Source: Anaerolineae bacterium (GTDB lineage: Bacteria; Chloroflexota; Anaerolineae; Promineifilales; Promineifilaceae). From it: 64,000 nt of DNA. The position numbers and the translations under genes were made by a program. The DNA lies in NCBI GenBank assembly GCA_023384415.1, contig JAHDWJ010000014.1:43943-107942 (forward strand), read 5' to 3'. Below, piece by piece: positions 2-64,000 of the stretch. The first letter of the stretch is position 1, and every line of letters starts with the position of its first letter. A model generated the notes under the pieces. That model saw only the letters and a program-made list of their open reading frames with translations, was not told the DNA's origin and did not search any database.

Positions 2-2512
2 CTGGTAGGACTGTTCTTGTTTGCAGCCGCGGCCTGGATCGGCCTGACTATTTTAGCTGTCCAGGTGGTCTCCTTTGCCCTGGTCGTCTCCTTTGCCCTG
101 CTGCTCCAATTGGGGTTTATCCTTCTGGGGGGACAGGCCGGACGGTTATTTGATGTGCGCCAACTGCGGCAATGTTTCCCCCTCATCGTCACCGGTTTTG
201 TCGTAGGGTTTATCGTTGGGGCTTTACTGGTGCCGTTGTTCGTGCAATGGTTTGGCAGTACGGCTGAGGCCAGCATTGGGTTGCTGCTCACTTCCCTCTT
301 CTGGCTGTTGCTGCTCCTGGTGACTAACCGGTCTTACTACGATGAACTGAGCCTGGGGCCAGAACGCGGCCGCGACAGCAGTCCCAAAACCATCACCCAA
401 CTCCTAAGAAACCGATTTGTCCTGTTCATCTTTCTCTACCAGATGTTAGCCATCGCCATCAACCAGTTGACTGAATTTATGTTGATGAGTCAGGTGGCCG
501 AACGGTACAGCAGCAGCGAAAGCACCGCCCAATTTTTTAGCCGGTTTACCGCCCTGGTCAACGGCACCGATCTGCTTTTTACCACCCTGTTGGCAACCCA
601 TCTGTTGAGCCGTTTTGGCCTAAACCGCGCCCTGTTAGCCAATCCGGCAGCGATGGCTTTGCTGCTATTGGCTTTGGGAGGGGTGTATCTATGGGGGGGT
701 GCGGCCGCGTTTCTCTTTTTCGCCCTGGCCGTCCTTATTCGGGTAGTGATGATCACCCTCAACGATGGCTTCACCCGCACCGCTACCAACATCAGCTACC
801 AGGCCCTACCCCCCCTGGAGCGCGTTCCCGTACAAACCAGTGCTGAAGGGATTGGCGGCCCTCTGGCCTTGGGGTTGACCGGCCTCTTTCTCCTTATTTT
901 TAGCCGGGTTCCCCTCTTTCATACGGGCCACCTTTTGGGTTTGGCTTTGCTTTTAGCCATCGCTTGGGGAGTAGTGGGTTGGTACATGTATCGGGATTAT
1001 GCCAATACCCTACGGCAATCGCTGCGCCGTCGTGTTTTTGATGATACCGAAATTTCCCTGGCTGACAGTGCCAGTATGGCCGTTATCGAGCGGCTGCTCA
1101 ACCGGGATCGCCTCTCTGATGTGCAGTTAGCCCTGGATGTACTGGCCCAGGCTGACCGCCCCGCTTATGAGCGATCTTTATTGCGCCTGCTCATCCATCA
1201 ACAGGCCAATATGCGCCTGGAAGCGGTAAAACGGCTAGAAAGCCGCCCCATCCCTGCCGCTCGCTCTCTGGTGGAAAGCCGCTGGCAAAATGATAGCTCC
1301 TTGATGGTTAAAGGGGGTGCGCTTCGGACTTTGTGTGCTTATGACGGGGAGCAGGGGTTGGATTGGGTAGCCCCATTGATGGAAGACCCCGCCATTGAAA
1401 TTCGTTTGGCAGCCATGGTCGGGATGCTCCGGTATGGTGGCATTGCTGGGGCGATGTTAGCCGGGGAACGGCTGATGACTTTGACCCACTCTCCCCTGGT
1501 GACGGATCGGATCATGGCCGCTCAAGTGATTGAAGGGGTGGGGCAGAATAATTTCTACCAACCCCTCTTGGCGTTGCTGGCTGATAAACGGGTGGATGTC
1601 CGGCTGGCGGCTTTGCTCGCGGCCGCGCACTGCCCTCATCCTCACCTCTTACCCCTGGTGGTAGATAATTTGCGCCAACCGGCGACCCGGTCTGCGGCCG
1701 CGGCCGCTCTCTCCGCCTATGGCGCCACCTTGCTCCCCTTTACTGATGCGGCCTTGAGCGGGCAAGAGCCATTGGAACAGCGGCAGCTAATCCGCCTGGT
1801 GCGGGCTTGTGGTCAGATTAAAGGGGAAGAGAGCATTGCTTTGCTCAAGCAGCACCTTCACTACCCAGATCGGGAGATACGGGGGCAAATCATGTTGTCT
1901 CTGATCCGCTGCGGCTATCGGGCGGTTGGCGAAGAAGTGGGAGGGATCATGGCGGCGATGCGGTCTGAGGTGGCTCATGCGGCTTATGCCCTGGCTGCCT
2001 GGCAAGATGTGGGAGAAGGGGAAGCAACCGCGCCGCTGCGCCGTGCCCTGCTCGAAGAGTGGCAGCAAGCACGACAGCATCTTTTTTATCTGTTGGCTTG
2101 CCTTTATGATAGCCAGGCGATGCTGCGGGCTGGGGAGCGGCTGGTGCGGGGGAATGAAGCAGAATGGGCGTTGGCCCTGGAACTGTTGGATGTGACTTTG
2201 ACGCCGGAACAGAAGGGGTATCTCTTTCCTTTGGCGCGGCCGCAGCTTAGGCCAGAACAGCGGCTGCAACAGTTGATGGGGCGTAATTCTCTGCCCCATT
2301 TATCCCAGGAAGAGCGGCTGCGTCAGCTTATCCTGGGAGGGGAAGAGGCTACCCCTCGTTTGTGGACCCAGGCGTGTGCGGTGTACGCGGCCGCGCAATT
2401 AAACCTGGCTTCTCTCGTCGAACCCATTGCCACCATCCACCACCTGGCTGATTCCCTACTCCTGGAAACAACCACCTGGGCTTTAAATCGTTTCGATAAT
2501 CACGATTCTTAA
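2..2512 (+). CDS. Polytopic membrane (MFS/nucleotide-transporter-like) domain fused to C-terminal HEAT-type repeats; 5' end probably outside the window
   Basis: ORF 17..2512 stays open in the same frame back to base 2. The first ~330 aa are hydrophobic helices. Residues ~360-830 carry repeated HEAT-like motifs (NMRLEAVKRL, EIRLAAMVGML, DVRLAALLAAA, EIRGQIMLSL). Confidence 0.6.
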   Translation: MVGLFLFAAAAWIGLTILAVQVVSFALVVSFALLLQLGFILLGGQAGRLFDVRQLRQCFPLIVTGFVVGFIVGALLVPLFVQWFGSTAEASIGLLLTSLFWLLLLLVTNRSYYDELSLGPERGRDSSPKTITQLLRNRFVLFIFLYQMLAIAINQLTEFMLMSQVAERYSSSESTAQFFSRFTALVNGTDLLFTTLLATHLLSRFGLNRALLANPAAMALLLLALGGVYLWGGAAAFLFFALAVLIRVVMITLNDGFTRTATNISYQALPPLERVPVQTSAEGIGGPLALGLTGLFLLIFSRVPLFHTGHLLGLALLLAIAWGVVGWYMYRDYANTLRQSLRRRVFDDTEISLADSASMAVIERLLNRDRLSDVQLALDVLAQADRPAYERSLLRLLIHQQANMRLEAVKRLESRPIPAARSLVESRWQNDSSLMVKGGALRTLCAYDGEQGLDWVAPLMEDPAIEIRLAAMVGMLRYGGIAGAMLAGERLMTLTHSPLVTDRIMAAQVIEGVGQNNFYQPLLALLADKRVDVRLAALLAAAHCPHPHLLPLVVDNLRQPATRSAAAAALSAYGATLLPFTDAALSGQEPLEQRQLIRLVRACGQIKGEESIALLKQHLHYPDREIRGQIMLSLIRCGYRAVGEEVGGIMAAMRSEVAHAAYALAAWQDVGEGEATAPLRRALLEEWQQARQHLFYLLACLYDSQAMLRAGERLVRGNEAEWALALELLDVTLTPEQKGYLFPLARPQLRPEQRLQQLMGRNSLPHLSQEERLRQLILGGEEATPRLWTQACAVYAAAQLNLASLVEPIATIHHLADSLLLETTTWALNRFDNHDS
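1694..1707. repeat. Overlapping double copy of the iterated palindrome GCGGCCGC (example of ~119 copies)
   Basis: GCGGCCGCGGCCGC read directly; it encodes AAAAA in the first ORF. Identical doubles occur at 13277-13290 and 46741-46754. Confidence 0.95.
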
Positions 2513-2517
2513 CCCCT

Positions 2518-5025
2518 TTATAAAAGGGCTAACTGCGCGGCCGCGATCATCTCGGCTGTCTCTTCTGCTTCAACCAGAGTAGGGGGAGCATTCTCCCATC
2601 TCTGGCTGACCTGCACCACCCCGGTTACCCGATTCGTTCCCCCCAGGCTGATGATCTCACGCGGCGTAATGGAACGGCGACCAATGATACTCTCTTTTAC
2701 CTTTATTTTGCGAGCCGATTCCGTCGCTGTCTTAAAAATAATCTCCTCTTTTTCATTGGCTATAGCAAAAGCCACCACCTCAGAAGCTCCCTTCACCAGC
2801 TTGAAATTTTGCACCCCCTGACCATGGCGCCCCTGCGTGGGATACTCCTCAAGGGGAGTTGCTTTAGCATACCCATTATCACTGATACTCCAGACGAAGC
2901 TGTCCGGTTGGGCCAGATCTAGCCCGATCACCCCATCTGTCTCGGCCTGGAGCTTAATCCCAGCCACCCCTCCCGCGGGCAGCCCCATCGGCCGGACTTC
3001 ATCTTCACGGAACCGTATCAATTGACCGGCGGCTGTGCCTAGCAGTACCTCATTCTCTCCCGTTGTTAATCGGGCCCAACCTAAAGCATCCCCATTCTCT
3101 ATCCGTATGACGGTGAACGGGGTAGTGGTGATGCCGGGTAAATCATCTAGCCGTACCCGCTTCACCACCCCACCCAGAGTGGCCAGAAACAGGTATCCTT
3201 CAGCAGTGGAGGGGAGAGTGAGCGCGGCCGCGACCAAATCCCGCTTACTTAACCCCGTCATATCGGCATAATGGGTACCTTGCCCCAACTCCGTTGCTAA
3301 GGGAAGCTGGTACACCGGTAAACTTACCCCCTGCCCATCCACCGTAAACAGATACAACACATCCTGGGTGCTGGCCTGGAGTAAAGCCAGAGGCAGCTCA
3401 TCTGGTTTAACCGGTACCTTCACCGGAGTGGGAGAGCTGGTGCGGGCGATTGTGCCCTTCTCCCCCACCATTACCCATACCTGCTCATCAGGCAATAAAT
3501 CGGCCTGAGTGATCACCTGGCTGGCCTCTTTATCTACAATTTGGGTGCGGCGCACGTCCCCATACTGCTTTTTGATCGCCAACAACTCTTCCTTGATCAC
3601 CGTCCGCATCTCAGCTGGGGTGGCTAGAATGCGTTGCAAATATTTAATCAGCCGCTGCTTCTCGTCATGCTCATCCTTCAATTTGCGTCGTTCCAGTCCC
3701 ACCAGGCGGCGCAGCGGCATATCCAGCACCGCTTTGGCCTGAAGTTCACTTAGCTTAAATTTCTTCTGCAAATTGGCCTGGGCCGTTTCGGTAGTTTGGG
3801 AGCGGCGAATGGTGTCAATGATGGCATCCAGGTTATCCAGGGCGATAAGCAGCCCTTCTAAAATATGGGCACGTTCCTGGGCTTTCTGTAAATCATAGGC
3901 CGACCGACGACGTACTATTTCCTGCCGATGCTCCAAATAAACGCGCAGGGCCTGTTTCAAATTTAGAACGCGCGGTTCTCCATTGACCAGAGCTAGCAGA
4001 TTAATGCTAAAGGTGGATTGCAGTGGGGTCAGTTGGAACAATTGGGCTAAAATGTCCTCTACTTTAGCCCCCCGTGCCGTCTCCAGGATAATCCGCATCC
4101 CGTTGCGGTCTGATTCATCTCGTAAATCGGTCAGCCCTTCAATCCGGTTGTCCCGGTGCAGATCGGCGATGCGTTCCAACATGTTGGCGATGTTGGTCTG
4201 GTAAGGCAGTTCCGTGATGACGATGCGGGATTTGTTGCGCTCAATTTGCTCCACATGAACTTTGGCCCGAACGGTAATCGCCCCTTTGCCGGTAGCGTAG
4301 GCGTTGGCGATGGCATCGGTTTCCCCCGTTTTGGTATCCCGGTAGCGGAAGATGAGGCCGCCGGTGGGAAAATCAGGCCCTTTGACGAACTGGAGCAAAT
4401 CGGCCACTGTGACATCATCCAGATTGTCCCAATGGTCAAGCAGGTGGGTAAGCGCGTCTATGATTTCGCCCAGGTTGTGGGGGGGAACGCTGGTAGCCAT
4501 ACCGACGGCGATCCCAGAGGCCCCGTTGACGAGCAGGTTAGGGATGGTGGCGGGTAAAACGGTTGGCTCTTTGAGGGAGTCATCAAAGTTGGGGCCGAAG
4601 TTGACGGTGTTTTTTTCAATGTCGTCAAGCAGGGCATGGCCCAGGTTAGACATACGAGCTTCGGTGTAACGCATGGCCGCGGCCGCGTCCCCGTCAATGG
4701 AGCCAAAGTTGCCCTGCCCTTCCACCAGCATGTAGCGCAAAGAAAAATCTTGAGCCATGCGCACCATGGCATCATAAACCGATTGGTCGCCATGGGGGTG
4801 GTATTTACCCAGCACTTCTCCAACGACACGGGCTGATTTGCGATACGGCTGGTTGGGGCGCAAGCCCATATCATACATGGCGTATAAAATGCGTCGCTGC
4901 ACCGGTTTCAGGCCATCTCGTGCATCGGGGAGGGCACGGGAGACGATAACGCTCATGGCATAGCTTAGATACGATTCGCGCATCTCGTGGTCAATATCAA
5001 TTGGGCGAATAAGTCCGACTTCCAT
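2518..5025 (-). CDS. gyrA: DNA gyrase subunit A
   Basis: [58 protein letters not shown] and the AAMRYTE active-site region, plus C-terminal beta-pinwheel repeats. ATG at 5025 chosen because the conserved N-terminus starts there; the 28 upstream ORF codons lie in a heptamer repeat block. Confidence 0.95.
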
Positions 5026-5036
5026 AGGGTGATCCA

Positions 5037-5078
5037 GTTTTAATTTCGAGTTTTGAGTTTCTGATTTTGAATTTGGGG
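5037..5078 (-). repeat. Heptamer tandem-repeat block (A-type, AAAnTCn) immediately 5' of the gyrA start
   Basis: Gene-sense reading: AAATTCA AAATCAG AAACTCA AAACTCG AAATTAA AACTGGA TCACCCT ATG. Confidence 0.8.
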
Positions 5079-5261
5079 TGGTAAGGTGAAAGGTTGGACG
5101 CGGCTGCAATGATAGAACATTTGTCCGATTATTTCAACCCAAATTTCACCGGTAATTTCCCCTCTTGCGGCCCACTACCCACAAAAAAGTAGGGTGCAGA
5201 CCCCTGCAACCCTACTTTGATACCTGTATACAGCCAAACAAGCAAATGGGCAAATGGGGAG

Positions 5262-5302: not shown

Positions 5303-5303
5303 C

Positions 5304-13693: not shown

Positions 13694-13938
13694 GCGAATC
13701 TGGCCTTACTCTACAGGGCGACAAGGCGACAGGGTGAAAAATGCCAGAGTAAGCCCTGCGAGTGTACCTTTCGTTGCTGCGTTTTCCCCCTCCGTTTCTA
13801 CCACCAACTGTGTCACCTAAAACTGATGCGGCCGCGTAAACCCCTTACTATATCCTGTCAGGTCCGAGGCGATAAGGGCCTTGGTTCACCCATAGATCTA
13901 CGAAATGCGTATTAGCATAAATGTTCTAATGTGGTTAA

Positions 13939-14145
13939 AATAAAGACGGTTCAATAGAGGCTCTGACCGATGCGGCCGCTCAGCGTCGCTGCCACTTTAG
14001 TTGGGGTGAAGTCAGTTTTGTGGAGCTGCTGCTTTACACCATGCGCCATGTGCAGGGACATGCCGCGCAGCTAAACTTGTTTCTGGGGCAAAAGATGGAC
14101 GCATCCCCGGATTGGGTGGCACAAGCTAGAAACGGAGATAAATAG
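13939..14145 (+). pseudogene. DinB-family (DinB_2/DUF664-like) gene remnant; C-terminal ~68 codons only
   Basis: Frame 1 reads ...FSWGEVSFVELLLYTMRHVQGHAAQLNLFLGQKMDASPDWVAQARNGDK*. This is the typical C-terminal His-containing helix of DinB-like proteins. An in-frame stop lies at 13936-13938 and there is no plausible start or N-terminal domain. Confidence 0.45.
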
Positions 14146-37100: not shown

Positions 37101-37448
37101 ATCTACACTAGAAACAGTCACCACGACATCCTGGTAAAATTCATATGATAAGGACAGGAATAATGTGACCGTACCCTGGGCTTCACTAACAGTGGGGCTG
37201 GCGTTGGTGAAAGAGATGGTGGGAGCTGGTCGTGGCGTAAAATGACCCCCAATAGGGCCAATCTCGGGCGGGGCCAGGGGTGCCCGTTCCACAAATCGTC
37301 TGAAGGTATCTTCAATTGTAGGCCACAGAAGGGACAAAATTAAAACTACGGCCATACCCACCAAAAGTAGGATGACGGCATACTCAATGAAGCCCTGGCC
37401 GGCCTGCCGGGTAAAGCGTCGTTTGGGGGAATGGTTGTGTTTGAACAC
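34119..37448 (-). CDS. Giant Flp-type-leader protein with several Calx-beta-like and CBM-like domains (adhesin-like)
   Basis: N-terminus RQAGQGFIEYAVILLLVGMAVVLIL fits the Flp G-x4-EY prepilin motif plus a hydrophobic helix. Repeated GTATAGADY...TV.IP.GQ..G.F.I.I modules are Calx-beta-like. Two EVENF/EAENFxCGG modules are CBM-like. GTG start with AAGGAAGG upstream. Confidence 0.7.
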   Translation of the reverse strand: MFKHNHSPKRRFTRQAGQGFIEYAVILLLVGMAVVLILSLLWPTIEDTFRRFVERAPLAPPEIGPIGGHFTPRPAPTISFTNASPTVSEAQGTVTLFLSLSYEFYQDVVVTVSSVDGTATAGADYEPVNTTVTIPQGQTNGQFTITILQDTEIEPDETVILRLSNANISNVGPDATLTILDDDVPPAFSFAESVYLVEENQGPLQVVVRMDRMYNAAASVAFTTQNGTATGGSSCSGGIRYVTQSGTLNFPSGVNEQTITIQICNNSLAEGDANFSIVLSNPTPPGSTISGTNPVPVTIIDDETAPTITFTATNYIVNENQGTALLYVQLSRSYSTQVTVEYQTEPGTAFAPGDYTHSQGVVTFSPGVTNRIITVPITNDNLHEWEEFFSVRLSNPQPPNIPIVGNNPVTVTIIDDDCAYGPHAIPTRIEVENFMCGARGVTHFDIDEVNQGNSPYRVVDAPGVDLRANAQTGGIDLGWTVAGEWLHYDVNVAVSSPYDVIVRAASDVNGASFRLLVDGVSVTANPIQVPNTGNTFSFQNITVPWVVFSQGPRILRLEIVNGGAYFDYIQVQTTSGTTIQFNNSSYVVFENDGQAIITVDLGSVVSQPVSVNYATSNGTAIAGADYTATSGTLTIPAGQNSGTFSIPIINNTIAGPPFKTVNLALSNPVNGQLGVQTTAVLNIIDDECSFGPYNVPGRVEAENFTCGGQATGYNDTTPGNQGTSSYRFWESVDLFSGGTSNGVFVGATANGEWLRYRINVATPGFYNVTVRAAANTNNAQFSLLLNGIGTYGPYAVPNGGAGNYSNILVTGMYLTAGQHTVQLNVINTGATYDYLEFSTLSGLLLTLNDDNNTITGPNGVPLGGVNDEDIVLFVNGGYSLFFDGSDVGVGQNLQDFQLLPDGTILMTFANLFNHGGNTYNPEDIVRFTPTSLGTNTSGSFSMFFDGSQYGLGDTSNGRLEYIDGFFVQSTGTILISTVGNMRVPSSATQNIDANDEDIVLFNPTTGYYSWFIDGSDIGFDANNAAENIVAFWLNSQGHVYFSTFGNFTVSHSSTTLTGLGNDIGIFIPNQLGATTTGTFINPRYFIGGTNTNNVSGLAGELINGFFIIP

Positions 37449-37505
37449 GGAGACCTTCCTTATGAGATAAATAATGAATATGAATAGAATTCAGGATTTC
37501 CCATC

Positions 37506-37538
37506 AACCCTGACAAGTCTCAGAGACCTGTCAGGGTT
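37506..37538. other. 10-bp stem hairpin between the TadG-like and adhesin genes
   Basis: AACCCTGACA (13-nt loop) TGTCAGGGTT. Confidence 0.4.
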
Positions 37539-37568
37539 TGTTTCCGATGATCTCTAATGAAATCTGTA

Positions 37569-39542
37569 TTATTTGATGAGATAGGGCAGCCCCGGCAGGC
37601 GGATTTGCCAGCCGTAGGTGTCATGATTCCCGGCCCAATAGTGGGCGATGAGCCGACCGCCATAAAACGGGGTACACCATTGGGGGGTCGTAGCCTGATT
37701 GACGCAGCGTGCTGGGTCCAAAGTGGGCACTTGAATACGGTATGCTGGCTCAATCCACCGATTTTCACACCCTTGGGGGTTGGTTGAACTTCCCGAAGTG
37801 TATGGAACACAGTTCCGCACTTCTCCAGGAGCCAGGTCAGGGTCTGCGGTGCGGGTATGGTTGACGGCAAAAGCCAGGTGCCAGTCAGTCAGACTGGTAT
37901 TGGTTGGATTTTGTGGGGTTGGGGGCACCGGGTCTCGCAGGGTGAATGCCAGGGTATCAAAGTAAAAAACAACCGGTGAGCGCGAACCAGCATCAGGATC
38001 AAACATGCTGATCAAAATTTGCGACCCGCCATATTCCGCGCCAACGTAGATCAGAGGGATATCTACGGCAAAGTTGGCGTTGGAGTTCATGGGCAAATTG
38101 CCCATACCAAACACCGTTACCCCTTTGGAGCTGTGAGAAGTGTTGCCACAGCGAACGACGTGAAGATTGCGGGCATTGGCCTTGCTGGGAACGCCAGCAG
38201 GAGGAAATTGGCCTGGGGCACCACAAGGAGCCAGAGGGTCATGTGAGCCGCTGGCATAATAAGGAGGCCCGGCCCAAATTTCAAACCCATTTTCGGAAGC
38301 CCCAGCAATGGCGGTGACATCCAGGTAGAGGAAGCGGGTATTGTTCTGATCTCGCATGATGCCGGTGTGAGACCCTAGATCAATCTCAAATGTGCCTGAG
38401 CCAGAGGTAACAGGTACCGTGGCGGGGCAGCCTGGTACATTGCGGTGATCATAGGCATCTTGTGCCCCGGGGGAAACCCAGCGCATGTCGGTGCAGTGGG
38501 CATTGTCAGCTCGACCTACATATTTAGCGAGGGTTACCGGTTCAATGATGCCAGTGATCCCGTTGATCTGGTAATAATATAAATCAAATGAGGTTTGGGT
38601 TGGGTGCCCACTGGCATAGTTGTTACTGGTGGGGTTGCCACAACTGCTGCCAAAATTTTGCCGTATTTCATCAATGCGAATGAACCAAAATGGGTTGGCG
38701 TCTTGACTTTCCCCGGTCTGAAAAATACAGGGTTGGAATCGGTAGCGGTCATCTCCCGGGCAGGCGGCCGCGCCGGTGGTACCGTCGGAGCGGGTGAAGG
38801 GGTGGGTAGCGCCATTTTCATCATTGGTATTGCCCAGGGACCAATTATAAGTATCAGGGTCAAACAGCTCTACCCGGATAATGCTGGTACCGGCAGTGGC
38901 TTCATAATTTGGCGGGATCATGATCCGGTAGCGGTAGGTGAAGAAGCTGTTGCTGTAATCCGGGTTGACATAATGGTTCGGCGGGCGGAAGGTACTGGTG
39001 GTGGGGGAGAATGGGTCCCCTAGACCGGTACGGCAGTTAGGCCCAAAGATTGCCTGATTAGATGTGCCCAGAGTACCCAGTTCAACGCGGCGGCTGGCAT
39101 AAATATCTACTAGAGGGAAATAAGCCGCTGTAGCTGATCGTTGAATGTTAAATTCGTTAAAGGTGAGCAGGCGCATGAAATAAAGCTCAACTGGCCAGGT
39201 TGCGGTTACGGTGAATTGGGTAGCCCCAATGGCATTGGCGCCAGGCATATATTGGGTGCCAGACATGACGACGCTGGCGGGAATGTTGTTGCTGTAGAGA
39301 AACTGTTCGGCTTTGGTAATGGCCCCGCTGAGGCCGAGTTGGGTTTCTATTTCGGTGACGCCAGCTAATGCGGCCGCGTCTACTGCGGCTGTCAACTGGG
39401 CACTCCGTACCCATACCATGCCTAAATCTATGGCCAGTCCGACAAAAGCCAGCAAGGCAACCATGACCACCGCAATGAGGACAATGCTTTGCCCAGCTTC
39501 CTTATGATTATTTGTTGGAGATGTCCTGTGTTGTCTCATCAT
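37569..39542 (-). CDS. TadG-like (Flp pilus assembly, PF13400-type N-terminus) large secreted protein
   Basis: GQSIVLIAVVMVALLAFVGLAIDLGMVWVRSAQLTAAVDAAALAG matches the TadG N-terminal pattern as I recall it. The remaining ~600 aa have no motif I recognise. Confidence 0.65.
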   Translation of the reverse strand: MMRQHRTSPTNNHKEAGQSIVLIAVVMVALLAFVGLAIDLGMVWVRSAQLTAAVDAAALAGVTEIETQLGLSGAITKAEQFLYSNNIPASVVMSGTQYMPGANAIGATQFTVTATWPVELYFMRLLTFNEFNIQRSATAAYFPLVDIYASRRVELGTLGTSNQAIFGPNCRTGLGDPFSPTTSTFRPPNHYVNPDYSNSFFTYRYRIMIPPNYEATAGTSIIRVELFDPDTYNWSLGNTNDENGATHPFTRSDGTTGAAACPGDDRYRFQPCIFQTGESQDANPFWFIRIDEIRQNFGSSCGNPTSNNYASGHPTQTSFDLYYYQINGITGIIEPVTLAKYVGRADNAHCTDMRWVSPGAQDAYDHRNVPGCPATVPVTSGSGTFEIDLGSHTGIMRDQNNTRFLYLDVTAIAGASENGFEIWAGPPYYASGSHDPLAPCGAPGQFPPAGVPSKANARNLHVVRCGNTSHSSKGVTVFGMGNLPMNSNANFAVDIPLIYVGAEYGGSQILISMFDPDAGSRSPVVFYFDTLAFTLRDPVPPTPQNPTNTSLTDWHLAFAVNHTRTADPDLAPGEVRNCVPYTSGSSTNPQGCENRWIEPAYRIQVPTLDPARCVNQATTPQWCTPFYGGRLIAHYWAGNHDTYGWQIRLPGLPYLIK

Positions 39543-39588
39543 GTTCTGTCCTACGTGATAAAGATTGAGGCAATCTTATCGTTTGTGC

Positions 39589-39628
39589 TGCGTGACGAGT
39601 GCTATATTCACGCAGCACTCGTCACGCA
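39589..39628. other. 15-bp perfect stem hairpin in the TadG-like gene leader
   Basis: TGCGTGACGAGTGCT (39589-39603), 10-nt loop, AGCACTCGTCACGCA (39614-39628). No T-tract on either strand. Confidence 0.6.
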
Positions 39629-39771
39629 ATCTATTATGGCTCCTTAGGAATTCAAAGGATTGATGCCAGATGTAAGGGACTGGCCTTCTACCTGCCCAGT
39701 CGAGGGCAACCACAAGGATATGCCCCTACATTTAGCCTTGTCCCACGAAACCCCAAAGACCCTGTATTAAT

Positions 39772-41106
39772 TTAGGGTGTAGACGTTGTTTGCCCACAAC
39801 TGGTGTCATAGCTCACAAATTGCACCAACAGCCAGCGGTTGGTTTCTCCAGACACAAATTGGTAGCCTAACAGCCGCACATTGGCAAATTGGGCTACGCG
39901 TACAAAAGGTTGATCAGAATTGCCAGGACCACCCCCTTGTAGTACGCCATGTTCCCGCCACATAATGACCCGCAAGGTGCGCCTCCGGTCAATATGTCCG
40001 GCGGCTTCGTCAGAAACGGCTGAACCATTGGCGTTACTATAAGCTACCCGGTCGCCAATGCTTAATTCGGTATCGGGCCAATTACCTACTTCATGGAAGC
40101 CCAGGTCAACAGGGGTACGCACCGTGCTGTTGCCGGGCCAGGTCATGCTGGCTCGCAAACGGGTGTGCCCCTGATTGCAGCCAGTACAGGTGGAATCCGT
40201 ATTCCATTGCAGCCAGGCATAATTAACGGCCGGTGAAACGTTTAGCCCTTCACCCAGGAACAAGAAAACATCCCCCTCGGTAGCCCCAGCCTGGAGCGGA
40301 TTGTTGGCGACATGCCCTTGCTGGACAAGCTGGGCATAAGTGGGCAAAACGGCAGGGTACCGTTGATTGACCGGGTGCCAGCCGGTGGCGATGGCGTAGG
40401 TTGCCGGGTCAACGGATCGGATCACATCATCTCGTAAGGCCAGGGGGAAGGCATCACACCCCGCCGTTTGGTTGTTGGAGACGACGGAAGTTACGCGAAA
40501 TACATGCAAGGCCCGCACGGTGAATACTCTTTCCAGGAACACATCTAACCCCAGAATAGATTCAATGTCATGGGCTGAATACATGGCGACAAATTCCAGG
40601 TTGTTAATATCTGGAGCCGGGTTGCTGGGGTTTTGGCAGGTGCCGGTGCCCCCCTGGACTAATTTGTTCATAACATCCTGGCGGAATTGTGGTGAAAAAA
40701 CATAGCTGTTGGTTTCGGTAAAAGCGACGGTTTGGGAAATGCCGTAGCTGTGTTCAACGGTGAAATTTTGGTCGTTGGGACCAAAATCTAGGGTAGGGCT
40801 GCCATTGGTCCCATTGAGGCAGCGTGCCCGGACGCGGCCGCGGACAGACCATAAATCCCATTGGTCAATCTCTAACTTGAGCGTTTGCGTCACCGTATTA
40901 AGAGCTACCGAGACCATACCGGCATTTTCTCCCCCATTGGCTCCAAAGCGGGCAGCCTCGCGGGTAGCCGTATTGACCTTATTCTGCGTTACCAGATACA
41001 GGCTTAATTCCACCAGCCCGGCAATGATGATCAGGGCTACCGGCAGAAAGATAGCGACTTCAACTAAACTTTGACCTTTTTGCTGCCACCTTGTTTTTGT
41101 TTGCAT
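39772..41106 (-). CDS. TadE-like pseudopilin-leader protein (444 aa)
   Basis: KGQSLVEVAIFLPVALIIIAGLVELSLYLVTQNKVNTATREAARFGANGG is a TadE-family N-terminus. Confidence 0.65.
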   Translation of the reverse strand: MQTKTRWQQKGQSLVEVAIFLPVALIIIAGLVELSLYLVTQNKVNTATREAARFGANGGENAGMVSVALNTVTQTLKLEIDQWDLWSVRGRVRARCLNGTNGSPTLDFGPNDQNFTVEHSYGISQTVAFTETNSYVFSPQFRQDVMNKLVQGGTGTCQNPSNPAPDINNLEFVAMYSAHDIESILGLDVFLERVFTVRALHVFRVTSVVSNNQTAGCDAFPLALRDDVIRSVDPATYAIATGWHPVNQRYPAVLPTYAQLVQQGHVANNPLQAGATEGDVFLFLGEGLNVSPAVNYAWLQWNTDSTCTGCNQGHTRLRASMTWPGNSTVRTPVDLGFHEVGNWPDTELSIGDRVAYSNANGSAVSDEAAGHIDRRRTLRVIMWREHGVLQGGGPGNSDQPFVRVAQFANVRLLGYQFVSGETNRWLLVQFVSYDTSCGQTTSTP

Positions 41107-41227
41107 GATTACGCTCCTACGAAAATCAGAACCGATGACGGATAATCCAGGACGGATGAATCACTTTCCACTGCCTGTTGTCTGTCATTTTCATCCCTCA
41201 AATTTGTCACTCTGCCTCAACTTTCCT

Positions 41228-41875
41228 TTAAGATGAAGTCAAAGGCATGATCTCACCACTGTTGGCATCCAGTCGAATGGTCAGTGATTGGCCTGTCTGG
41301 CTGCTAAACAGCGAAATAGTCCACTCCATGCGGCCGCTTTCGGTTACCGCACTTAAATTCATATTCAAGATCGAAACCCCTTGCGTCCGTAAAAATTGAT
41401 CCCCGCCCGCCTGCTCCAACAAAATTTGCACTGCTTCCGGGCTGTCAATCCGCCAGCCCGTGCTAGAAGCAGGCGTAAGTGGGTTAGGTGCCGGATTTTG
41501 GCTAATCAGTTGGGCAACATTTTCTAATACTTCGATGTTAGCGACACTGCTTTGTCCTGGGGAGTAAAAGATAAAGCTCCAAACAGTAGTCCCAGTTAAA
41601 ATATCGCTGCGAGTGACCCCTTGCGGCCAGGTTGCTTTGGCTTCTATTAATTGGGCATCACTTTGCCATTCACGGGCCACATTGGTGGCGGAAGTAAAGG
41701 CTAAAACGGCGGTGCCCCCCTGGAAAGCCAGGGTGGGGGCTACCGGCACCGTAACCGCCAGGGTAGGCGGGAGCTCCACGGTTGGTTTAGGCAGCCAGAG
41801 GATCGCGGCCGCGATCAGCACAATCGCCAGCAGCAATACCAAAATCGTTCCTAAAATCCATTCGGCTCGGCTCAT
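41228..41875 (-). CDS. N-terminally anchored hypothetical protein
   Basis: A single TM segment (ILGTILVLLLAIVLIAAAILWL). ATGA overlap with the upstream gene stop. Confidence 0.55.
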   Translation of the reverse strand: MSRAEWILGTILVLLLAIVLIAAAILWLPKPTVELPPTLAVTVPVAPTLAFQGGTAVLAFTSATNVAREWQSDAQLIEAKATWPQGVTRSDILTGTTVWSFIFYSPGQSSVANIEVLENVAQLISQNPAPNPLTPASSTGWRIDSPEAVQILLEQAGGDQFLRTQGVSILNMNLSAVTESGRMEWTISLFSSQTGQSLTIRLDANSGEIMPLTSS

Positions 41876-43260
41876 GATCGTCTTATAAACGGCAGGAATA
41901 CCCCTGGTTGGGGCAGTTCCCGCCGGCGATAATAAATCTGGATATCCCCATTAGCAGGATTTCGCAGCTCAAAAACCAATTGAAACCACTGCCCATCTGT
42001 GGTCAGGCGTGGATAAAGGGTACGGGTGTTAAAATCAGTTGCCCGGTCTAAATTCGATCCCCAACCACCGCAACTGTTGCTGCCCCATACCACTTCTAAA
42101 GAATGGTTAGGATCACCATCCAGCCCATGATAATAAACCGCCACACAAGTGCCATAACTAATCATGGACGGGATGATAAAAAATGGGTCTTGTGTATTAA
42201 CCCCTACCGGCGCACTGCCACTGATGGGATTACTGGGGTGAGATACCCAACTGGCGGCATTGGTGCAATTACTGCTGCAAGAGGTCACATACACCTCTTG
42301 CCAGACAGGTTCACCCGGCTGTGCCCCCCCATAGCGATAGCTGTAAGCCACAAACAAGGTATTCCCCTGAGCCACAATGTCAGGGCGGGCGGCTTCATCT
42401 ATAGATGGATCCGCAATGTTAATCGGATTGGCCGCGTTGTACTCCCAACTGGAAGTTGTATTCGTGCCTGTCACCGTGCCCCTGGCATAACGAATCCGGC
42501 TGAACTCATTATTGGGGGGTTCAATAATCGCTTCTTCCCAAACAACATGGAGTTTGCCGTCTGTGGTTATAGCCAGAGATGGGTTAAACGAATTGGGACC
42601 AGTAATGGCGACCGGGTTGGGATTGGTGCTCCAACTGCCGCCGCCGTTGGCGGATCGTTTGTGCAAGATATTAAGTTGGAATTGGGTGTCAGGAAAAACC
42701 TGGCTCCATACCACATCTAGCCGGTTGTTACTGCTGGCGACAATGCGCGGGGACACCATCGCGGCCGAAACAGCAGATGTTGCCTGGCTTAACGTCTGCG
42801 GGGCACTCCAACTACCAGATACATTATTGGCATAATACAGCCTGGTCAACTGCCCCAGGCCGGCATTTTCTAACCAGACAATGTGCACCCGATTGTTGGC
42901 ATCCACCGCCACATCAACCGCCGTACCATTGACCGTACTTCCCGGTACCACTCGGGTTGGTCCGTTCCAACTCACCCCGTCATTGGTTGAAATCCGCACA
43001 TACGGGGTGTAGAAAGAGCCAGTATGCTGCAAATAAACCACAGCCAGGGTTGAACCGTCGGCTGAATAAGCAATTGCAGGAGCAATGGCGCGGCCAGTAG
43101 TTGTGGAAAGATGGACCCCTGGGGGTGTTCCTTCCCAATCCCCTAGAGCTTCTGGGGCTGAGGCGGCTGGAGCAACCTGGATCAGGCTGACCATGCCCAG
43201 CAGTACCAGCAGCAGCACCGGGAGCAATATTGTTTGGCGGGAGATAGTTCGCTTTACCAT
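41872..43260 (-). CDS. Secreted BNR/sialidase-like beta-propeller protein
   Basis: Signal/anchor MVKRTISRQTILLPVLLLVLLGM. BNR-like motifs STNDGVSWNGP and SANGGGSWST. ATG 43260 chosen. Confidence 0.65.
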   Translation of the reverse strand: MVKRTISRQTILLPVLLLVLLGMVSLIQVAPAASAPEALGDWEGTPPGVHLSTTTGRAIAPAIAYSADGSTLAVVYLQHTGSFYTPYVRISTNDGVSWNGPTRVVPGSTVNGTAVDVAVDANNRVHIVWLENAGLGQLTRLYYANNVSGSWSAPQTLSQATSAVSAAMVSPRIVASSNNRLDVVWSQVFPDTQFQLNILHKRSANGGGSWSTNPNPVAITGPNSFNPSLAITTDGKLHVVWEEAIIEPPNNEFSRIRYARGTVTGTNTTSSWEYNAANPINIADPSIDEAARPDIVAQGNTLFVAYSYRYGGAQPGEPVWQEVYVTSCSSNCTNAASWVSHPSNPISGSAPVGVNTQDPFFIIPSMISYGTCVAVYYHGLDGDPNHSLEVVWGSNSCGGWGSNLDRATDFNTRTLYPRLTTDGQWFQLVFELRNPANGDIQIYYRRRELPQPGVFLPFIRRS

Positions 43261-43298
43261 TTTACCAATCCTAAAAATCCGTGTTCCCCAAGCTGTCT

Positions 43299-45440
43299 TT
43301 ATCGGAACGTATGCCCAGATGTTGGGGCCGGGCAACCACTCACACTTTCCATCATAAACATGTCTATATAGAAGTTGGGCGCGGTAATGCCGGGGCGAAC
43401 GGCGGCATAATAGACATTCCCATTGGCTGTATTCAGGGTAAAACAGGCATAAACAGTGTAAGTAACCCCTAACTCAGCATAATTAAAGAAGTAACTCCCG
43501 GTGACACTGCTGTCCGTTTGGGCCACCAGCGTTGGGGTGGGGACACCAGACGTTTGCACCAGGTAAACGGTAGCCCGGAATTGGGGCACCCAGTCGCTCC
43601 CGGTGAAGATACGCACAATCCCGGCGATGGTATTACTCCCTGATGGGGTGGGAGTGGGAGTAGGTGTTTCAAACGGGGGTGTCACGGGAACGACGAGATT
43701 ACCGGTAATGTTGTTAAACTCGTTGGCTTCAGTAACCTGCCGTATGGAATCAACCATACCCACCACGGTGTGAGTGGTGGCTATGCCAGGGAACCCACCC
43801 CCTATGGTCATGGTAATCGTTCGGCTGTCACCACCGGGAAGACCCCCAACGGCCACATAAGCAACACTATAGGTGATGGGCACTGTGTCCGACGTTACGC
43901 CCAAAGGATTGAAGTAGGTGTCCACATAAAACTGGCTGGAGATGTTAATGTTGCCGGTGTTGGTAATGACATAGCTAAAGGTCACCGGTTGGCCGCCATT
44001 AATTGGCGGGGTACTGATCAGGGTCGGGTAGCTCACAATGACCAGATCTGCCGGGTTGGGTGATGGTGTCGGTGTAGGTGAAATAATCGTTGGTTGGGCA
44101 CAAGGGACATCGAACCGTCTTTCGGCATACGCTCCATTGATAGCCTGAGCCGCAAAAGTATAGGGTGAATTGGCTTGAGTAAAGGCAGCCACGCTGACCA
44201 TAACTTCGGCAAAGCTGCCCCCATGTCCCTGGGCTATGGTGGTTATATTGATACTGTTACCAAACCGATCATAAACAGAGATGTTGATAGGGGATTGCGG
44301 CGGAGGGGTGATGGGCCAATTGCCCCCAAACAGCTCAATGACAGCATTGGGTGAGCCAGGGTTCCAACAGGTTGACGAAGCGTTGATATAGGGACCAATA
44401 GGTGTGGCGCTGGGGGTTGGGGTCAGGCTAGGGGTGGGGGTAGCCGTTGGTATAGCTGTATTGGTTGGCAAGGGGGTTGGGGTGGGGGTGCCAGGCAAAA
44501 CAAAGGTGTAACTATTGGTATTGTCTACCAGGTTTGTTACTAGCAGCAGCATGCCTGCTACTAAGTTGACGCCAGGCTCCAGGACAAATTCCCCATGCCC
44601 AGGGCAGGCCCAACCCGGCCCTTCATCTTCCAGGAAGGCTAAATCAAGTTCGACGTTGTTGACCCCATCTATCCAGTCTAAGCGAACGGTGATAGGCGGA
44701 GCCGCGCCTAAACCACCAGTCACGCCAATGAACCGATCCCCTGCTACTACTGGTCCCGTGAACTGAGTTCTACAAGTTGGGGTAGCTGTTATGGACGGGA
44801 TGGGGGTATTGGTTTCGGTGGGCCCGGGTGATGGGGTAGCTGTTTCTGTAGGTGTTGGGGTGAAGCTGGGAGTTGGTCCGGGTGTGGGCACGGCTGGCAC
44901 GGGCGGGGGAAGACCCTGCCCCTGGTTAGCACTTCCTTGCTGCCCAAACTGTTCGTTGTTGACGACGACTTGCCCCATAACGGGAATGTTTTCTACGATG
45001 CCAGATAGGATAGGGGTGACGATGGGCACGTTGTAGACGACGCGAACCACCAGGGGAAGTCCAGGCATGCCGGCATAATCTTCCTGGAAAAACCCCAGAG
45101 CATTGACGCCATAAACTTGAACGATATAGAAGTAATCATCTTCATAAGCAGCGTCGGCATTGAGAGGCAGCCCGGTTAGATTTTCTTCAGCCAGGGATTT
45201 GATGGAAAAGACACGAGGATCGGCACATGGGGGGGTGTTGTTAAGACAGGCCAGATTGGCTTCACCGGTGATGCCGTAACGAGCTGCGGCACGGGCGGCG
45301 TTTTGCACTGTAACCCAGGCCCATAAAATCCGGCTGGCTTCGATAATGAAGAAAATGATGAGCAGTAAGACGATGATGATGAGGGCAAACTCAACGATGG
45401 CCTGACCCTTGTTGTCCATTTTATGCTTGGTTCGGAACAT
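43299..45440 (-). CDS. TadE-like pseudopilin-leader protein with T/P-rich linkers and Ig-like (CARDB-like) C-terminal modules
   Basis: KGQAIVEFALIIIVLLLIIFFIIEASRILWAWVTVQNAARAAARYG fits the G-x4-EF TadE motif. The start could be 45440 or 45419. Confidence 0.65.
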   Translation of the reverse strand: MFRTKHKMDNKGQAIVEFALIIIVLLLIIFFIIEASRILWAWVTVQNAARAAARYGITGEANLACLNNTPPCADPRVFSIKSLAEENLTGLPLNADAAYEDDYFYIVQVYGVNALGFFQEDYAGMPGLPLVVRVVYNVPIVTPILSGIVENIPVMGQVVVNNEQFGQQGSANQGQGLPPPVPAVPTPGPTPSFTPTPTETATPSPGPTETNTPIPSITATPTCRTQFTGPVVAGDRFIGVTGGLGAAPPITVRLDWIDGVNNVELDLAFLEDEGPGWACPGHGEFVLEPGVNLVAGMLLLVTNLVDNTNSYTFVLPGTPTPTPLPTNTAIPTATPTPSLTPTPSATPIGPYINASSTCWNPGSPNAVIELFGGNWPITPPPQSPINISVYDRFGNSINITTIAQGHGGSFAEVMVSVAAFTQANSPYTFAAQAINGAYAERRFDVPCAQPTIISPTPTPSPNPADLVIVSYPTLISTPPINGGQPVTFSYVITNTGNINISSQFYVDTYFNPLGVTSDTVPITYSVAYVAVGGLPGGDSRTITMTIGGGFPGIATTHTVVGMVDSIRQVTEANEFNNITGNLVVPVTPPFETPTPTPTPSGSNTIAGIVRIFTGSDWVPQFRATVYLVQTSGVPTPTLVAQTDSSVTGSYFFNYAELGVTYTVYACFTLNTANGNVYYAAVRPGITAPNFYIDMFMMESVSGCPAPTSGHTFR

Positions 45441-45724
45441 GGTTGCTTCCCTGTTGGGAACAATTGGTATATTACCCAACTGCTCAATGAAAATGATAAA
45501 AAATTAATGGTTGTATGCCTCTGGTATTTTGGTCATGGTAACTGGTGTACCTGGTGGGCATTTGTTGGTTGTTTAAGTTAAGATTGTCGCGGCCGCAGCC
45601 CATTCGCCTGATCATACCTTTTTTTGGACAATCTGCGCTGTTGAGGGCATGCTGCTACTATCTCTACCCTTACCTTAGCAGATAGGTGCTAACTAACCGT
45701 TAATTGATCATTAATCACCAAACG

Positions 45725-58245: not shown

Positions 58246-58301
58246 CCAGGGTGAATCTTATGTACAGACTTGCCCACTCGCAAATTCGCCAACATTGTAA
58301 C

Positions 58302-59093
58302 TCAAAATTCCCCTTTGCGTAAGGCTTGAATATACGGTTCATAGGCGATGGCTTGTTGGTCATTCTGGTTCAAGAGGCGGTAATAATCTTGGGCGATCTG
58401 AGCCTGCTGCTCGCGAGTATATTTGTGGTAAGGTTTGCCCTCTCGTTGGGCCTGTTTAAGCCCCTGGCTGCCCCCATATCGGTATGCTTCGTGTCCCAAT
58501 GTCCATTGAGCATGGAGGGCTTCGCCGATGTAGATAGAGCCAAGCTGCTCGTATTGATAGATGTGGGTGATTTCATGGACGAGTAAGGAAAGATCGCTGC
58601 GGCTACCTTCAGGCAGGTGAACGGTGTGCCAAAGAGCAAAAGCCCGCCCTTTGTTGGCCCGGAAAATGAAGCGCAAAACGCCCCCTTCGGCTACCCGAAT
58701 TTCTCCATAACGTAAAGCGGTTGGGCCTAAGATGGTCGCGGCCGCGTGCATTTCGGTCACGGTGAGAGGAGTAGTGGGTATGGCCAGGTGCATCACGAAT
58801 TGTACCAGTTCTGGCCCGCCGATGAGGTCAAACAGGTAACAGCCCAGGTGATGCAGGCCAAAAGTAACGCGGCCGCGCCAGGTACGTCCCCAGCCGGCTG
58901 GTTTCGGTTGGAACAGATCAGCCAATAAACGGCCCAGTCCGGTTACACCATAAACCAGCAGTCTGAGCAGGCGACCCAGCCGCACCGGTAAATCTCGCAC
59001 CAGGTTGATCGGCCACGCGGCCGCGTCTCGCAGCCGCTCTGCCAGCCACCCGGTCACCAACATTAAAACCAGGCCTATCTTAACCATAACCAC
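58302..59093 (-). CDS. DUF4157-like HExxH metallopeptidase-fold protein with hydrophobic N-terminus
   Basis: GRAFALWHTVHLPEGSRSDLSLLVHEITHIYQYEQLG resembles the DUF4157 core (...AFT.G..I.F....LLAHELTHVVQ). The start could be GTG 59093 or ATG 59087. Confidence 0.6.
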   Translation of the reverse strand: MVMVKIGLVLMLVTGWLAERLRDAAAWPINLVRDLPVRLGRLLRLLVYGVTGLGRLLADLFQPKPAGWGRTWRGRVTFGLHHLGCYLFDLIGGPELVQFVMHLAIPTTPLTVTEMHAAATILGPTALRYGEIRVAEGGVLRFIFRANKGRAFALWHTVHLPEGSRSDLSLLVHEITHIYQYEQLGSIYIGEALHAQWTLGHEAYRYGGSQGLKQAQREGKPYHKYTREQQAQIAQDYYRLLNQNDQQAIAYEPYIQALRKGEF

Positions 59094-63842: not shown

Positions 63843-63897
63843 AACGTGGATGGTGAAGGACCCCTGGCAAAATAGCTATCTAGTTACAGCCGGTTTT

Positions 63898-64000
63898 TTA
63901 TCCTGGCAGCATGAGCAGCAGCATGATGACGGGGCTGCGGGCCAGAATGCTGTGAGGCAGATGAGGGGGCATGTGGATCCAGGTGCCGGTCGCGGCCGCG
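63898..64000 (-). CDS. 3' end of a gene running off the window (cupin-like C-terminus?)
   Basis: The minus strand reads AAATGTWIHMPPHLPHSILARSPVIMLLLMLPG*. Only 34 codons are visible. Confidence 0.3.
   Translation of the reverse strand, partial: AAATGTWIHMPPHLPHSILARSPVIMLLLMLPG

Follow-up and report, generated by a model that had tools for sequence, protein, structure and literature searches.

The palindromic octamer GCGGCCGC, the NotI site, occurs 119 times in a 64,000-base stretch of an Anaerolineae genome (contig JAHDWJ010000014.1, positions 43,943 to 107,942; hereafter the window), and we conclude that it is an element of the highly iterated palindrome (HIP) class typified by HIP1 of cyanobacteria, with a new sequence in a new phylum (Chloroflexota) and with sister forms, such as ACGGCCGT, in related lineages. 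By direct count, its density is 1.86 per kb, or 1859 per Mb. The window has a GC content of 53.7% (G, 0.2815; C, 0.2556), from which only 1.7 copies are expected at zero order, giving an excess of ≈69-fold. Markov models of orders 1, 2, and 3 predict 2.0, 3.0, and 7.0 copies, respectively, with observed-to-expected ratios (O/E) of 40 at order 2 and 17 at order 3. GCGGCCGC was the commonest octamer of the window, and the runners-up were its own one-base-shifted overlaps, CGGCCGCG (71 copies) and CGCGGCCG (69 copies); the next palindromic octamer, GCCGCGGC, occurred 11 times. Independent genomes of the GCGGCCGC clade showed the same excess, and GCGGCCGC was also the commonest octamer in five independent relatives. 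An earlier note, made from the letters of this DNA alone, had put the count at about 119, which proved exact; 117 of its 119 listed positions agree with ours, and the other two (39369 and 63246) were one base off (true starts, 39370 and 63247). Its estimates of about 3 expected copies and a ≈40-fold excess are replaced by the computed values given above.

One explanation for this excess is a by-product of codon, amino-acid, or oligonucleotide bias, since GCC and GCG are common Ala codons and a maximal-order Markov model predicts 113.7 copies compared to the 119 observed (O/E of 1.05). The earlier note had held that such agreement would mean that bias alone explains the octamer, and the agreement is formally there. 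However, the test is uninformative because it is circular, with the octamer supplying its own sub-word counts: 119 of the 130 GCGGCCG, 119 of the 125 CGGCCGC, and 119 of the 143 CGGCCG words (over 90% of these 7-mers, and 83% of these 6-mers) fall within GCGGCCGC, and the copies outside it (11, 6, and 24, respectively) lead to an expectation of only ≈2.8 when the motif is left out. As the earlier note had stated, the sites lie in genes (115 of 119), on both strands, and in all three codon phases (66, 30, and 19 copies in phases 0, 1, and 2, respectively). When synonymous codons were permuted with the protein sequences and the codon usage of each gene held fixed, 12.6 ± 3.0 sites were obtained (maximum of 21; n = 300), ≈9-fold fewer than the 115 observed, and even this null expectation is inflated because the proteins themselves bear the imprint of the motif. 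Ala-Ala-Ala (AAA) occurs 88 times compared to 14.6 expected from the Ala frequency (≈6-fold), and 66 of these 88 tripeptides are written GCG-GCC-GC; GCGGCCGC likewise encodes 30 of the 36 [RSCG]-Gly-Arg tripeptides and 19 of the 29 x-Arg-Pro-[QHLPR] peptides, and it occupies 115 of the 153 compatible tripeptides (74%). These counts support the earlier claim that the palindrome accounts for the AAA, RGR, and RP strings in the translations, and the particular translations reported were confirmed as well (RGR at 366; AAA at 701, 1619, 1694, 1700, and 2387; (A)RPQ at 2236). The 5- to 6-fold AAA excess is found only in lineages that carry the motif, and relatives with similar GC and Ala content lack GCGGCCGC. 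Moreover, the 6.4 kb of non-coding DNA (GC, 46%) contains 4 copies compared to 0.05 expected, a 79-fold excess, which is similar to the 66-fold excess in coding DNA; therefore, the pressure acts on DNA and not on peptides. The shuffle null, the non-coding excess, and the restriction of the AAA excess to motif lineages rule out bias as the cause, and we regard a by-product of this kind as very improbable. The pressure on the DNA has sufficient strength to prevail over codon choice and, where the protein is tolerant, over the amino-acid sequence as well.

Site density follows protein tolerance and not position. A site-poor block (Table 1) encodes large secreted or surface proteins with Pfam matches to Calx-beta and CBM6/35, TadG-like and TadE-like pilin, BNR-like, and CARDB domains. 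The palindrome is scarce in this block because the proteins offer few compatible tripeptides, at 2.7 per 1000 amino acids compared to 9.2 elsewhere; the rate of use is unchanged, with 7 of 10 compatible tripeptides used in the block and 108 of 143 elsewhere. The densest gene of the window, queG, was compared in an alignment of 120 homologues. Two of its nine sites lie in strongly conserved peptides (RGR in 99% and LRPL in 82% of 108 distant homologues), three lie in partly conserved peptides (CGR, AAA, and RGR, in 24-32% of homologues), and four lie at variable positions, where, for example, AAA is replaced by PAG, PAA, ETA, or LAR in homologues. The occurrence of sites at both conserved and variable positions implies that they were made by synonymous tuning as well as by tolerated amino-acid replacement.

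The motif extends by one base on each side of the octamer. The −1 neighbour is a pyrimidine (Y) in 100 of the 119 copies and the +1 neighbour a purine (R) in 99, with counts of C66/T33 at −1 and G68/A30 at +1, and the 10-mer CGCGGCCGCG alone occurs 43 times. This preference is part of the motif, because it is present in every codon phase and in the non-coding copies. The earlier consensus Y-GCGGCCGC-R thus stands in every phase, and its tally for the first 30 copies (27 with Y at the 5' neighbour and 26 with R at the 3' neighbour) was reproduced. Nothing is conserved farther out, and the sites therefore do not lie within a longer repeat. Spacing in the window is Poisson-like (mean of 539 bp; coefficient of variation of 0.99; Kolmogorov-Smirnov test against an exponential distribution, p = 0.94), with 19 gaps of ≤100 bp compared to 20 expected. 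In 126 kb pooled from the GCGGCCGC clade, 197 perfect sites were found, and 197 of the 238 CGGCCG words lie inside the octamer. The 12 classes of one-base variants had 2-16 copies each in this sample, compared to ≈6 expected from composition. By position pair (1/8, 2/7, 3/6, and 4/5), the variants numbered 26, 26, 30, and 10, respectively, with the central positions varying least, and the corresponding numbers for the ACGGCCGT clade were 22, 3, 4, and 1; these counts are small in both clades. Among CGGCCG words, one outer base hardly depends on the other (130 x 125 / 143 = 114 compared to 119 observed), and independent half-sites are as expected for a symmetric dimer reading the palindrome.

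GCGGCCGC is a common cloning-linker site, and we considered whether the copies could be artefacts of NotI linkers or of assembly, or else remnants of mobile repeats, such as repetitive extragenic palindromes (REP) or miniature inverted-repeat transposable elements (MITE). Part of the window was recovered in Logan assemblies from four Sequence Read Archive (SRA) runs (SRR29287881, SRR29287883, SRR24308231, and SRR24130422; L220-L223), all of which contain a protein 99% identical to the window QueG. These contigs carry every site of the shared stretch (all 18, or 10 where the match is partial), and none of their 10-12 mismatches to the window falls within a site. In addition, metagenome-assembled genomes (MAGs) from other projects show the same excess, with gyrA sites at matching codons. 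The earlier note had proposed that sites missing from raw data would betray an artefact; this possibility is refuted by the independent assemblies, and a linker or assembly artefact is ruled out by these four assemblies and the MAGs from different projects. In a codon alignment of gyrA (window, L001, L003, L004, L005, and L006), no indels were found at the sites; two of the 3 sites are present in each of the three other clade genomes in the comparison, and the third is present in two (L001 and L003). The same pattern was seen in queG, where one of the nine sites adjoins an alignment gap in a variable loop. A mobile repeat is ruled out by the lack of flank conservation beyond ±1, the location of 115 of the 119 copies in genes, and the absence of indels in gyrA. 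Because the sites recur in four SRA-run assemblies and stand in frame in conserved genes without indels, an origin as artefacts or mobile-repeat remnants is barely conceivable. The alignments instead indicate that sites arise by point substitution, rather than by insertion of a mobile unit, and then persist.

Persistence was marked in comparisons with relatives. The window shares 12 of 13 sites with L016 over 8.7 kb (PyrG 93% identical; ≈75% nucleotide identity), and a comparison with Candidatus (Ca.) Trichofilum (L004) gave 7 shared sites (7 of 12), 3 found only in the window, and 2 found only in the relative. By contrast, control octamers are conserved at 14% at ≈75% nucleotide identity. L001-L003 differ from one another by 10-30 substitutions and show one A/G polymorphism at an outer site position, which is too few to give a direction. 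Conservation this far above control octamers would be in keeping with a structural role, in which purifying selection maintains the sites as binding points for a nucleoid-associated or chromosome-organising protein, as was proposed for HIP1 on the basis of selection and a periodicity of 10-90 kb (Xu et al., 2018; PMC5861425). However, the Poisson-like spacing shows no regularity within 64 kb, density follows protein tolerance rather than position, the saturation of compatible positions predicts conservation equally well, and a structural role does not predict the carriage on phage and mobile-element contigs described below. We consider this role quite improbable.

On sequence evidence, the window lineage belongs to the Promineifilaceae, near Ca. 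Trichofilum. The GyrA encoded by the window is 85-89% identical to that of 'Chloroflexi bacterium' MAGs, including Candidatus Trichofilum aggregatum Hirt_MAXAC.142, which is placed in the Promineifilaceae (Promineifilales, Chloroflexota); a look-up of its exact sequence gave no match. Ca. Trichofilum is a filamentous activated-sludge bacterium (PMC10746286). Conserved genes of the window and Ca. Trichofilum aggregatum are ≈78% identical in nucleotide sequence, and the window therefore represents a related yet distinct species or genus.

Relatives were compared in the surroundings of gyrA, pyrG, and queG; Ca. Promineifilum breve was not among the genomes examined. Sister Promineifilaceae carry ACGGCCGT, often as AACGGCCGTT, at about 0.6-2.5 per kb, together with 0-1 copies of GCGGCCGC per locus. 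The ACGGCCGT excess in these lineages is 70- to 100-fold over composition and is higher in AT-richer loci (L005, L006, L017, L018, L021, L022, L024, L096, L098, and L224, from a closed Ca. Leptofilum genome, 'Ardenticatenaceae' and 'Promineifilaceae' MAGs, and several metagenome contigs). Each form has its own tripeptide mark. The O/E of Thr-Ala-Val is 6.45 in the ACGGCCGT clade, 0.7 in the GCGGCCGC clade, and 1.2 in relatives with neither motif, and the O/E of AAA is 2.4, 4.9, and 1.4, respectively. In gyrA, GCGGCCGC and ACGGCCGT stand at different positions. In queG, TGCGGCCGCT at column 707 corresponds to TACGGCCGTT in the ACGGCCGT-type orthologue, both encoding Leu-Arg-Pro-Leu, and CGCGGCCGCG (Ala-Ala-Ala) at column 822 corresponds to AACGGCCGTT (Thr-Ala-Val); a third pair of sites is offset by one codon. 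Because GCGGCCGC and ACGGCCGT differ only by transitions at the outer pair, some sites were converted in place. A single-gene tree (PyrG) placed the window and L016 among ACGGCCGT-bearing lineages, which weakly suggests that GCGGCCGC is the derived form.

Farther relatives lack a strict octamer but are enriched in the core: CGGCCG exceeds both the composition expectation and the seven remaining GC-only hexamer palindromes by 3- to 8-fold (L099, L081, L039, L036, L043, L041, L030, and L051). L099 contains 82 copies of CGGCCG in 22.5 kb, 50% of them with R..Y flanks, and L081 contains 43 in 7.9 kb, with CCGGCCGG occurring 10 times, which may be a third form. By contrast, a distant Anaerolineae locus contains 0 CGGCCG in 21.6 kb at 66% GC, whereas the other GC-only hexamer palindromes average 21, and the corresponding figures for further avoiding loci are 0 compared to 15, 0 compared to 10, and 2 compared to 21. 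Loci without any CGGCCG contain 9-21 copies of the other GC-only hexamer palindromes. Such avoidance (0 copies in L068, L083, L080, L052, L049, L076, L059, and L008; 1-2 copies in L088, L072, L094, and L058) is the classical signature of restriction-modification and suggests that CGGCCG-specific (EagI-type) enzymes circulate in the group.

A second palindrome was also observed in these comparisons. GCCGCGGC is the second commonest palindromic octamer in loci of the GCGGCCGC clade (window, L001-L004, L007, and L013), with 8 copies in L004 and 4 in L001 beside those in the window. It encodes Ala-Ala-Ala as GCC-GCG-GC in 8 of its 11 window copies, whereas Ala codon usage predicts ≈2 among the 22 AAA outside the main motif. 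GCCGCGGC may be either a by-product or a second target.

The signature is also present on phage and mobile-element contigs. Scanning IMG/VR for pairs of ACGGCCGT separated by 1-31 nt yielded at least 120 stretches, and 21 stretches among the matches listed were dense, with ACGGCCGT at ≥1 per kb and ≥5 copies. Densities of 1.7-3.7 per kb were found in L241, L295, L225, L237, L293, L311, L294, L319, and L344. L241 (IMGVR_UViG_3300033417_000002) contains 49 ACGGCCGT copies in 13 kb of a 100-kb contig and encodes ParA, FtsK/SpoIIIE, an Ant anti-repressor, RadC, and an SLT transglycosylase; it looks like a plasmid or an element resembling an integrative and conjugative element. Other dense contigs encode a large terminase (L293), a portal and a weakly matching terminase-like protein (L311), a head protein and protease (L294), an integrase and a tail/lysis protein (L319), and a tail spike (L344), and ACGGCCGT occurs inside these phage genes at 0.6-5 per kb. 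ACGGCCGT is absent from viral contigs whose terminase or portal is 41-54% identical (L345-L364), and the signature is therefore associated with host context rather than with phage lineage. The dense contigs are assigned to hosts solely by the motif, and there may be prophages among them. In the case of GCGGCCGC, two viral scans (queries, GCGGCCGCGGCCGC and two copies 7-37 nt apart) returned mainly GC-rich contigs, and no convincing GCGGCCGC-dense phage was found among the matches listed; L186 shows no more than a local cluster, and the signal in L108 and L141 is weak. In the GC-rich viral contig L141 (IMGVR_UViG_3300025818_003922), the top octamers are CGCGGCCG, which is not a palindrome and has 30 copies in 14.7 kb, and CCGCGGCC (20 copies), a different over-represented word that overlaps the NotI site.

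The closest counterpart of these elements is HIP1 (GCGATCGC), which occurs at 300-2700 per Mb in cyanobacteria with an O/E of 55-228 (Elhai, 2015; PMC4390886). HIP1 is often palindromically extended, spread by substitution, and conserved above control palindromes, and the CGATCG within it is the site recognised by DmtC, an orphan m5C methyltransferase (PMC4390886; PMC5861425; bioRxiv 10.64898/2026.06.24.733823). Like HIP1, GCGGCCGC is a G+C-rich 8-bp palindrome with a 6-bp CG...CG core between an outer G and C (G-CGATCG-C compared to G-CGGCCG-C), and the density and ≈69-fold excess found here fall within the HIP1 ranges, in support of the analogy drawn in the earlier note. Both occur in coding and non-coding DNA in all frames, spread by substitution without indels, extend to a 10-mer in most copies, and outlast control octamers; on small counts, the central positions also seem to deviate least, and the outer positions to deviate most in the ACGGCCGT form, whereas in the GCGGCCGC clade the outer positions do not stand out. 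GCGGCCGC differs from HIP1 in its centre, GC rather than AT, which leaves no GATC/Dam component, in its host phylum (Chloroflexota, Promineifilaceae, instead of cyanobacteria), and in its one-base-mismatch copies, which are at background level here and common for HIP1. Alternate HIPs have been described in cyanobacteria (GGGATCCC, TCGATCGA, CAGGCCTG, GCsGC, and rCCGGy; Elhai, 2015, PMC4390886; Xu et al., 2018, PMC5861425). Here, too, related lineages swap palindromes by keeping the core and changing the outer bases, with TCGATCGA and GCGATCGC paralleling ACGGCCGT and GCGGCCGC. However, neither GCGGCCGC nor ACGGCCGT is among the published alternates, all of which are cyanobacterial, and the Chloroflexota series additionally shows in-place conversion at orthologous codons and a gradation from hexamer-only to strict-octamer enrichment. 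In the literature searched, we found no HIP outside cyanobacteria (the 'iterated palindrome' papers from 2016 on are all cyanobacterial) and no report of GCGGCCGC, ACGGCCGT, or CGGCCG as an iterated palindrome or methylation motif in Chloroflexota, which is not proof of novelty; the earlier note likewise knew of no described GCGGCCGC equivalent. Among the features that mark a HIP, a palindrome as top octamer, abundance, frame independence, substitutional spread, and conservation over control octamers were found here.

Other known systems account less well for these observations. Besides being the NotI site, GCGGCCGC contains CGGCCG, the EagI/Eco52I site, and restriction targets are normally avoided; ACGGCCGT is not known to us as a restriction site. 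A restriction-modification target subject to site avoidance is ruled out by the ≈69-fold over-representation of GCGGCCGC, and avoidance is seen only in distant lineages. Polar signals, such as Chi and the FtsK-orienting polar sequences (KOPS), were rejected because a palindrome carries no strand polarity. In the Dcm/Vsr very-short-patch (VSP) repair of E. coli, a cytosine methyltransferase and a mismatch endonuclease shift word frequencies towards the methylated site CCWGG, but the effect is well under 2-fold and concerns one position. In the case described here, an exact octamer is ≈70-fold enriched and proteins are altered, and no Vsr- or Dcm-like gene was seen in the window or the scanned host loci. 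The cause proposed in the earlier note was of this kind, namely a 5mC methyltransferase combined with VSP-type repair or gene conversion. By analogy with E. coli, a single-position bias of the VSP type would be far too weak for a ≈70-fold octamer excess.

Taken together, we consider it highly probable that GCGGCCGC is a HIP-class palindrome that is driven by recognition and spread by substitution. The recognised unit would be the symmetric R-CGGCCG-Y with the EagI-type core CGGCCG, and its outer base pair is G:C in the Ca. Trichofilum-like lineage and A:T (ACGGCCGT) in the sister Promineifilaceae, with transitions switching some sites. A lineage-specific dimeric protein that reads the palindrome would bias which alleles are fixed, and the likeliest candidate would be a cytosine methyltransferase of the CGGCCG family, in parallel to DmtC, the orphan m5C methyltransferase of HIP1 (G-CGATCG-C). 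Sites that are methylated would have an advantage in mismatch correction or in uptake and recombination of incoming DNA, and perfect sites would thus accumulate where the protein tolerates Ala-Ala-Ala, x-Gly-Arg, or Arg-Pro. A change in the outer-base specificity would then re-tune the whole genome together with its resident prophages and mobile elements. The combination of a HIP-class palindrome with a fixation bias of the CGGCCG-family methyltransferase type seems to us rather probable, whereas methylation itself as the agent, which is proposed by analogy, is plausible but somewhat doubtful.

Several results weigh against this interpretation. No DNA methyltransferase, Vsr, or restriction enzyme was found among the 47 open reading frames (ORFs) of the window that were searched against Pfam. 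Regular expressions likewise found none in ≈400 kb of host and viral loci that bear sites, which amounts to little of any one genome; they covered C5-methyltransferase and Vsr motifs in the host loci, and C5- and N-methyltransferase motifs in the ACGGCCGT-dense viral loci. There is no clear depletion of C-to-T variants among the one-base variants, whose counts are small. Elhai's rule that G precedes the methylated C is at odds with the A-CGGCCG-T form. Finally, the conservation of sites fits purifying selection and a continuing fixation bias alike, because about three-quarters of the compatible positions are already sites.

The main rival to the methyltransferase model is a 'self' signal resembling DNA uptake sequences (DUS) or Chi, in which the competence or recombination machinery prefers palindrome-bearing DNA of close relatives (molecular drive), with no role for repair. 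GCGGCCGC and ACGGCCGT would then be dialects that limit exchange between lineages. The DUS of Neisseriaceae and the uptake signal sequences (USS) of Pasteurellaceae occur at ≈1 per kb, have accumulated by substitution, leave a tripeptide imprint, and vary between lineages around a core. The density of ≈1-2 per kb and the tripeptide imprint at tolerant positions recall the USS of Haemophilus and the DUS of Neisseria, the lineage-specific variants of a conserved core resemble DUS dialects, and the carriage of ACGGCCGT by phages and mobile elements also favours such a signal. However, the 9-12-mers that a pilin or uptake receptor reads as DUS or USS are asymmetric, and so is Chi. The perfect palindrome with independent half-sites found here lacks the asymmetry that defines DUS and USS and resembles more closely the sites of dimeric methyltransferases, endonucleases, or regulators. 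Moreover, the window contains no ComEA, ComEC, or DprA, its Tad-like pilin genes (37.6-45.5 kb) are of the adhesion type and site-poor, and natural transformation is, to our knowledge, not documented in this group. In cyanobacteria, methylated HIP1 raises the transformation efficiency of Synechococcus PCC 7002, and uptake or Chi-like roles have been proposed (Kamoku and Nielsen, 2024; bioRxiv 10.1101/2024.09.10.611283). We judge a 'self' signal that acts in place of repair to be unlikely; it is compatible with the methyltransferase model, and the two may coexist.

The features of the window are collected in Table 1. The window is an ordinary chromosome segment that encodes GyrA, PriA, PyrG, QueG, an ABC-F protein, and Ser/Thr kinases, as well as a SpoIIE/STAS partner-switching set and a Tad-like pilin cluster (Pfam, 47 ORFs). 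The only S-adenosylmethionine (SAM) methyltransferase in the window, at 61595-62791, has a PUA plus SAM-methyltransferase architecture, which we take to be that of an RlmI-like rRNA methyltransferase. An Rfam scan of the window gave no matches, and a contig search with the HEAT-repeat protein at 17-2512 found no relatives. The two non-coding copies of GCGGCCGC that are not in Table 1 start at 45589 and 63992.

Table 1. Sites and features of the 64,000-base window
Feature	Coordinates	Strand	Basis
119 dispersed GCGGCCGC copies, extended consensus Y-GCGGCCGC-R	366..63999		Direct count, flanks, spacing test
Overlapping double site GCGGCCGCGGCCGC, two copies sharing GC, 6 nt apart (also 13277-13290 and 46741-46754)	1694..1707		
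gyrA, 3 sites, all Ala-Ala-Ala	2518..5109	-	Pfam DNA_topoisoIV; codon alignment
Non-coding copies at 13828 and 13972 (two of four), in the spacer separating a kinase-TPR gene from an AlkZ-like gene	13828..13979		
Stretch recovered in Logan assemblies of four SRA runs, 99.2-99.7% identity	27902..33871		L220-L223
queG (epoxyqueuosine reductase), densest gene, 9 sites in 1.16 kb	32662..33819	+	Pfam; density
Site-poor block, 7 sites in 11.4 kb, none at 41872-45479	34119..45479	-	Per-gene density, largest gaps

Two regions of the window drew side observations. The two longest Logan contigs (L220 and L221) begin at 27902 and all four end at 33871, which suggests a repeat or a strain-variable boundary at these two positions. 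Farther downstream, the gene at 57185-58195 fuses an FHA domain to a phage-baseplate-like Tail_P2_I/Mu Gp48 domain, and the gene at 58302-59093 matches the eCIS core only weakly, with a score under the cut-off set by Pfam; an FHA/kinase gene (54397-56799) and an SH3-muramidase gene (60319-61515) lie nearby. The region at 57185-59093 may be a fragment of a contractile-injection-like or phage-derived module beside the FHA/kinase gene.

HIP1 has been a cyanobacteria-only puzzle for thirty years and has been debated as the product of a methylation-guided repair ratchet, of selection on chromosome structure, or of an uptake or Chi-like signal. The palindrome described here is a second system in an unrelated phylum, with the same G-CGxxCG-C layout and a different centre. 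We judge as evenly balanced the broader proposal that it is a HIP system independent of the cyanobacterial one, with a specificity whose evolution can be followed across a Promineifilales-like radiation, from a CGGCCG core through R-CGGCCG-Y to ACGGCCGT or GCGGCCGC, with in-place conversion of old sites, a separate tripeptide mark for each form, and the signature also borne by phages and mobile elements that have relatives without it in other samples. Two sister forms, core-only enrichers, core avoiders, and signature-bearing phages provide comparative tests that cyanobacteria alone cannot give, including the question of whether particular genes were gained or lost when the palindrome arose and when its outer base changed. 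In these organisms, pressure on a DNA word reshapes proteins strongly, with Ala-Ala-Ala at 5- to 6-fold over expectation, and codon-usage and tripeptide statistics are distorted by the palindrome. In practice, NotI or EagI would cut these genomes into pieces of ≈0.5 kb, and the octamer is a sharp marker for binning and for assigning phages and plasmids to hosts in activated-sludge metagenomes. If the proposal is true, genome-wide 'word writing' would be a general and portable process driven by one specificity-determining protein, rather than a cyanobacterial peculiarity, and the two forms and the core-avoiding lineages would constitute a natural experiment to decide between methylation-repair, uptake or recombination, and selection models of HIP1.

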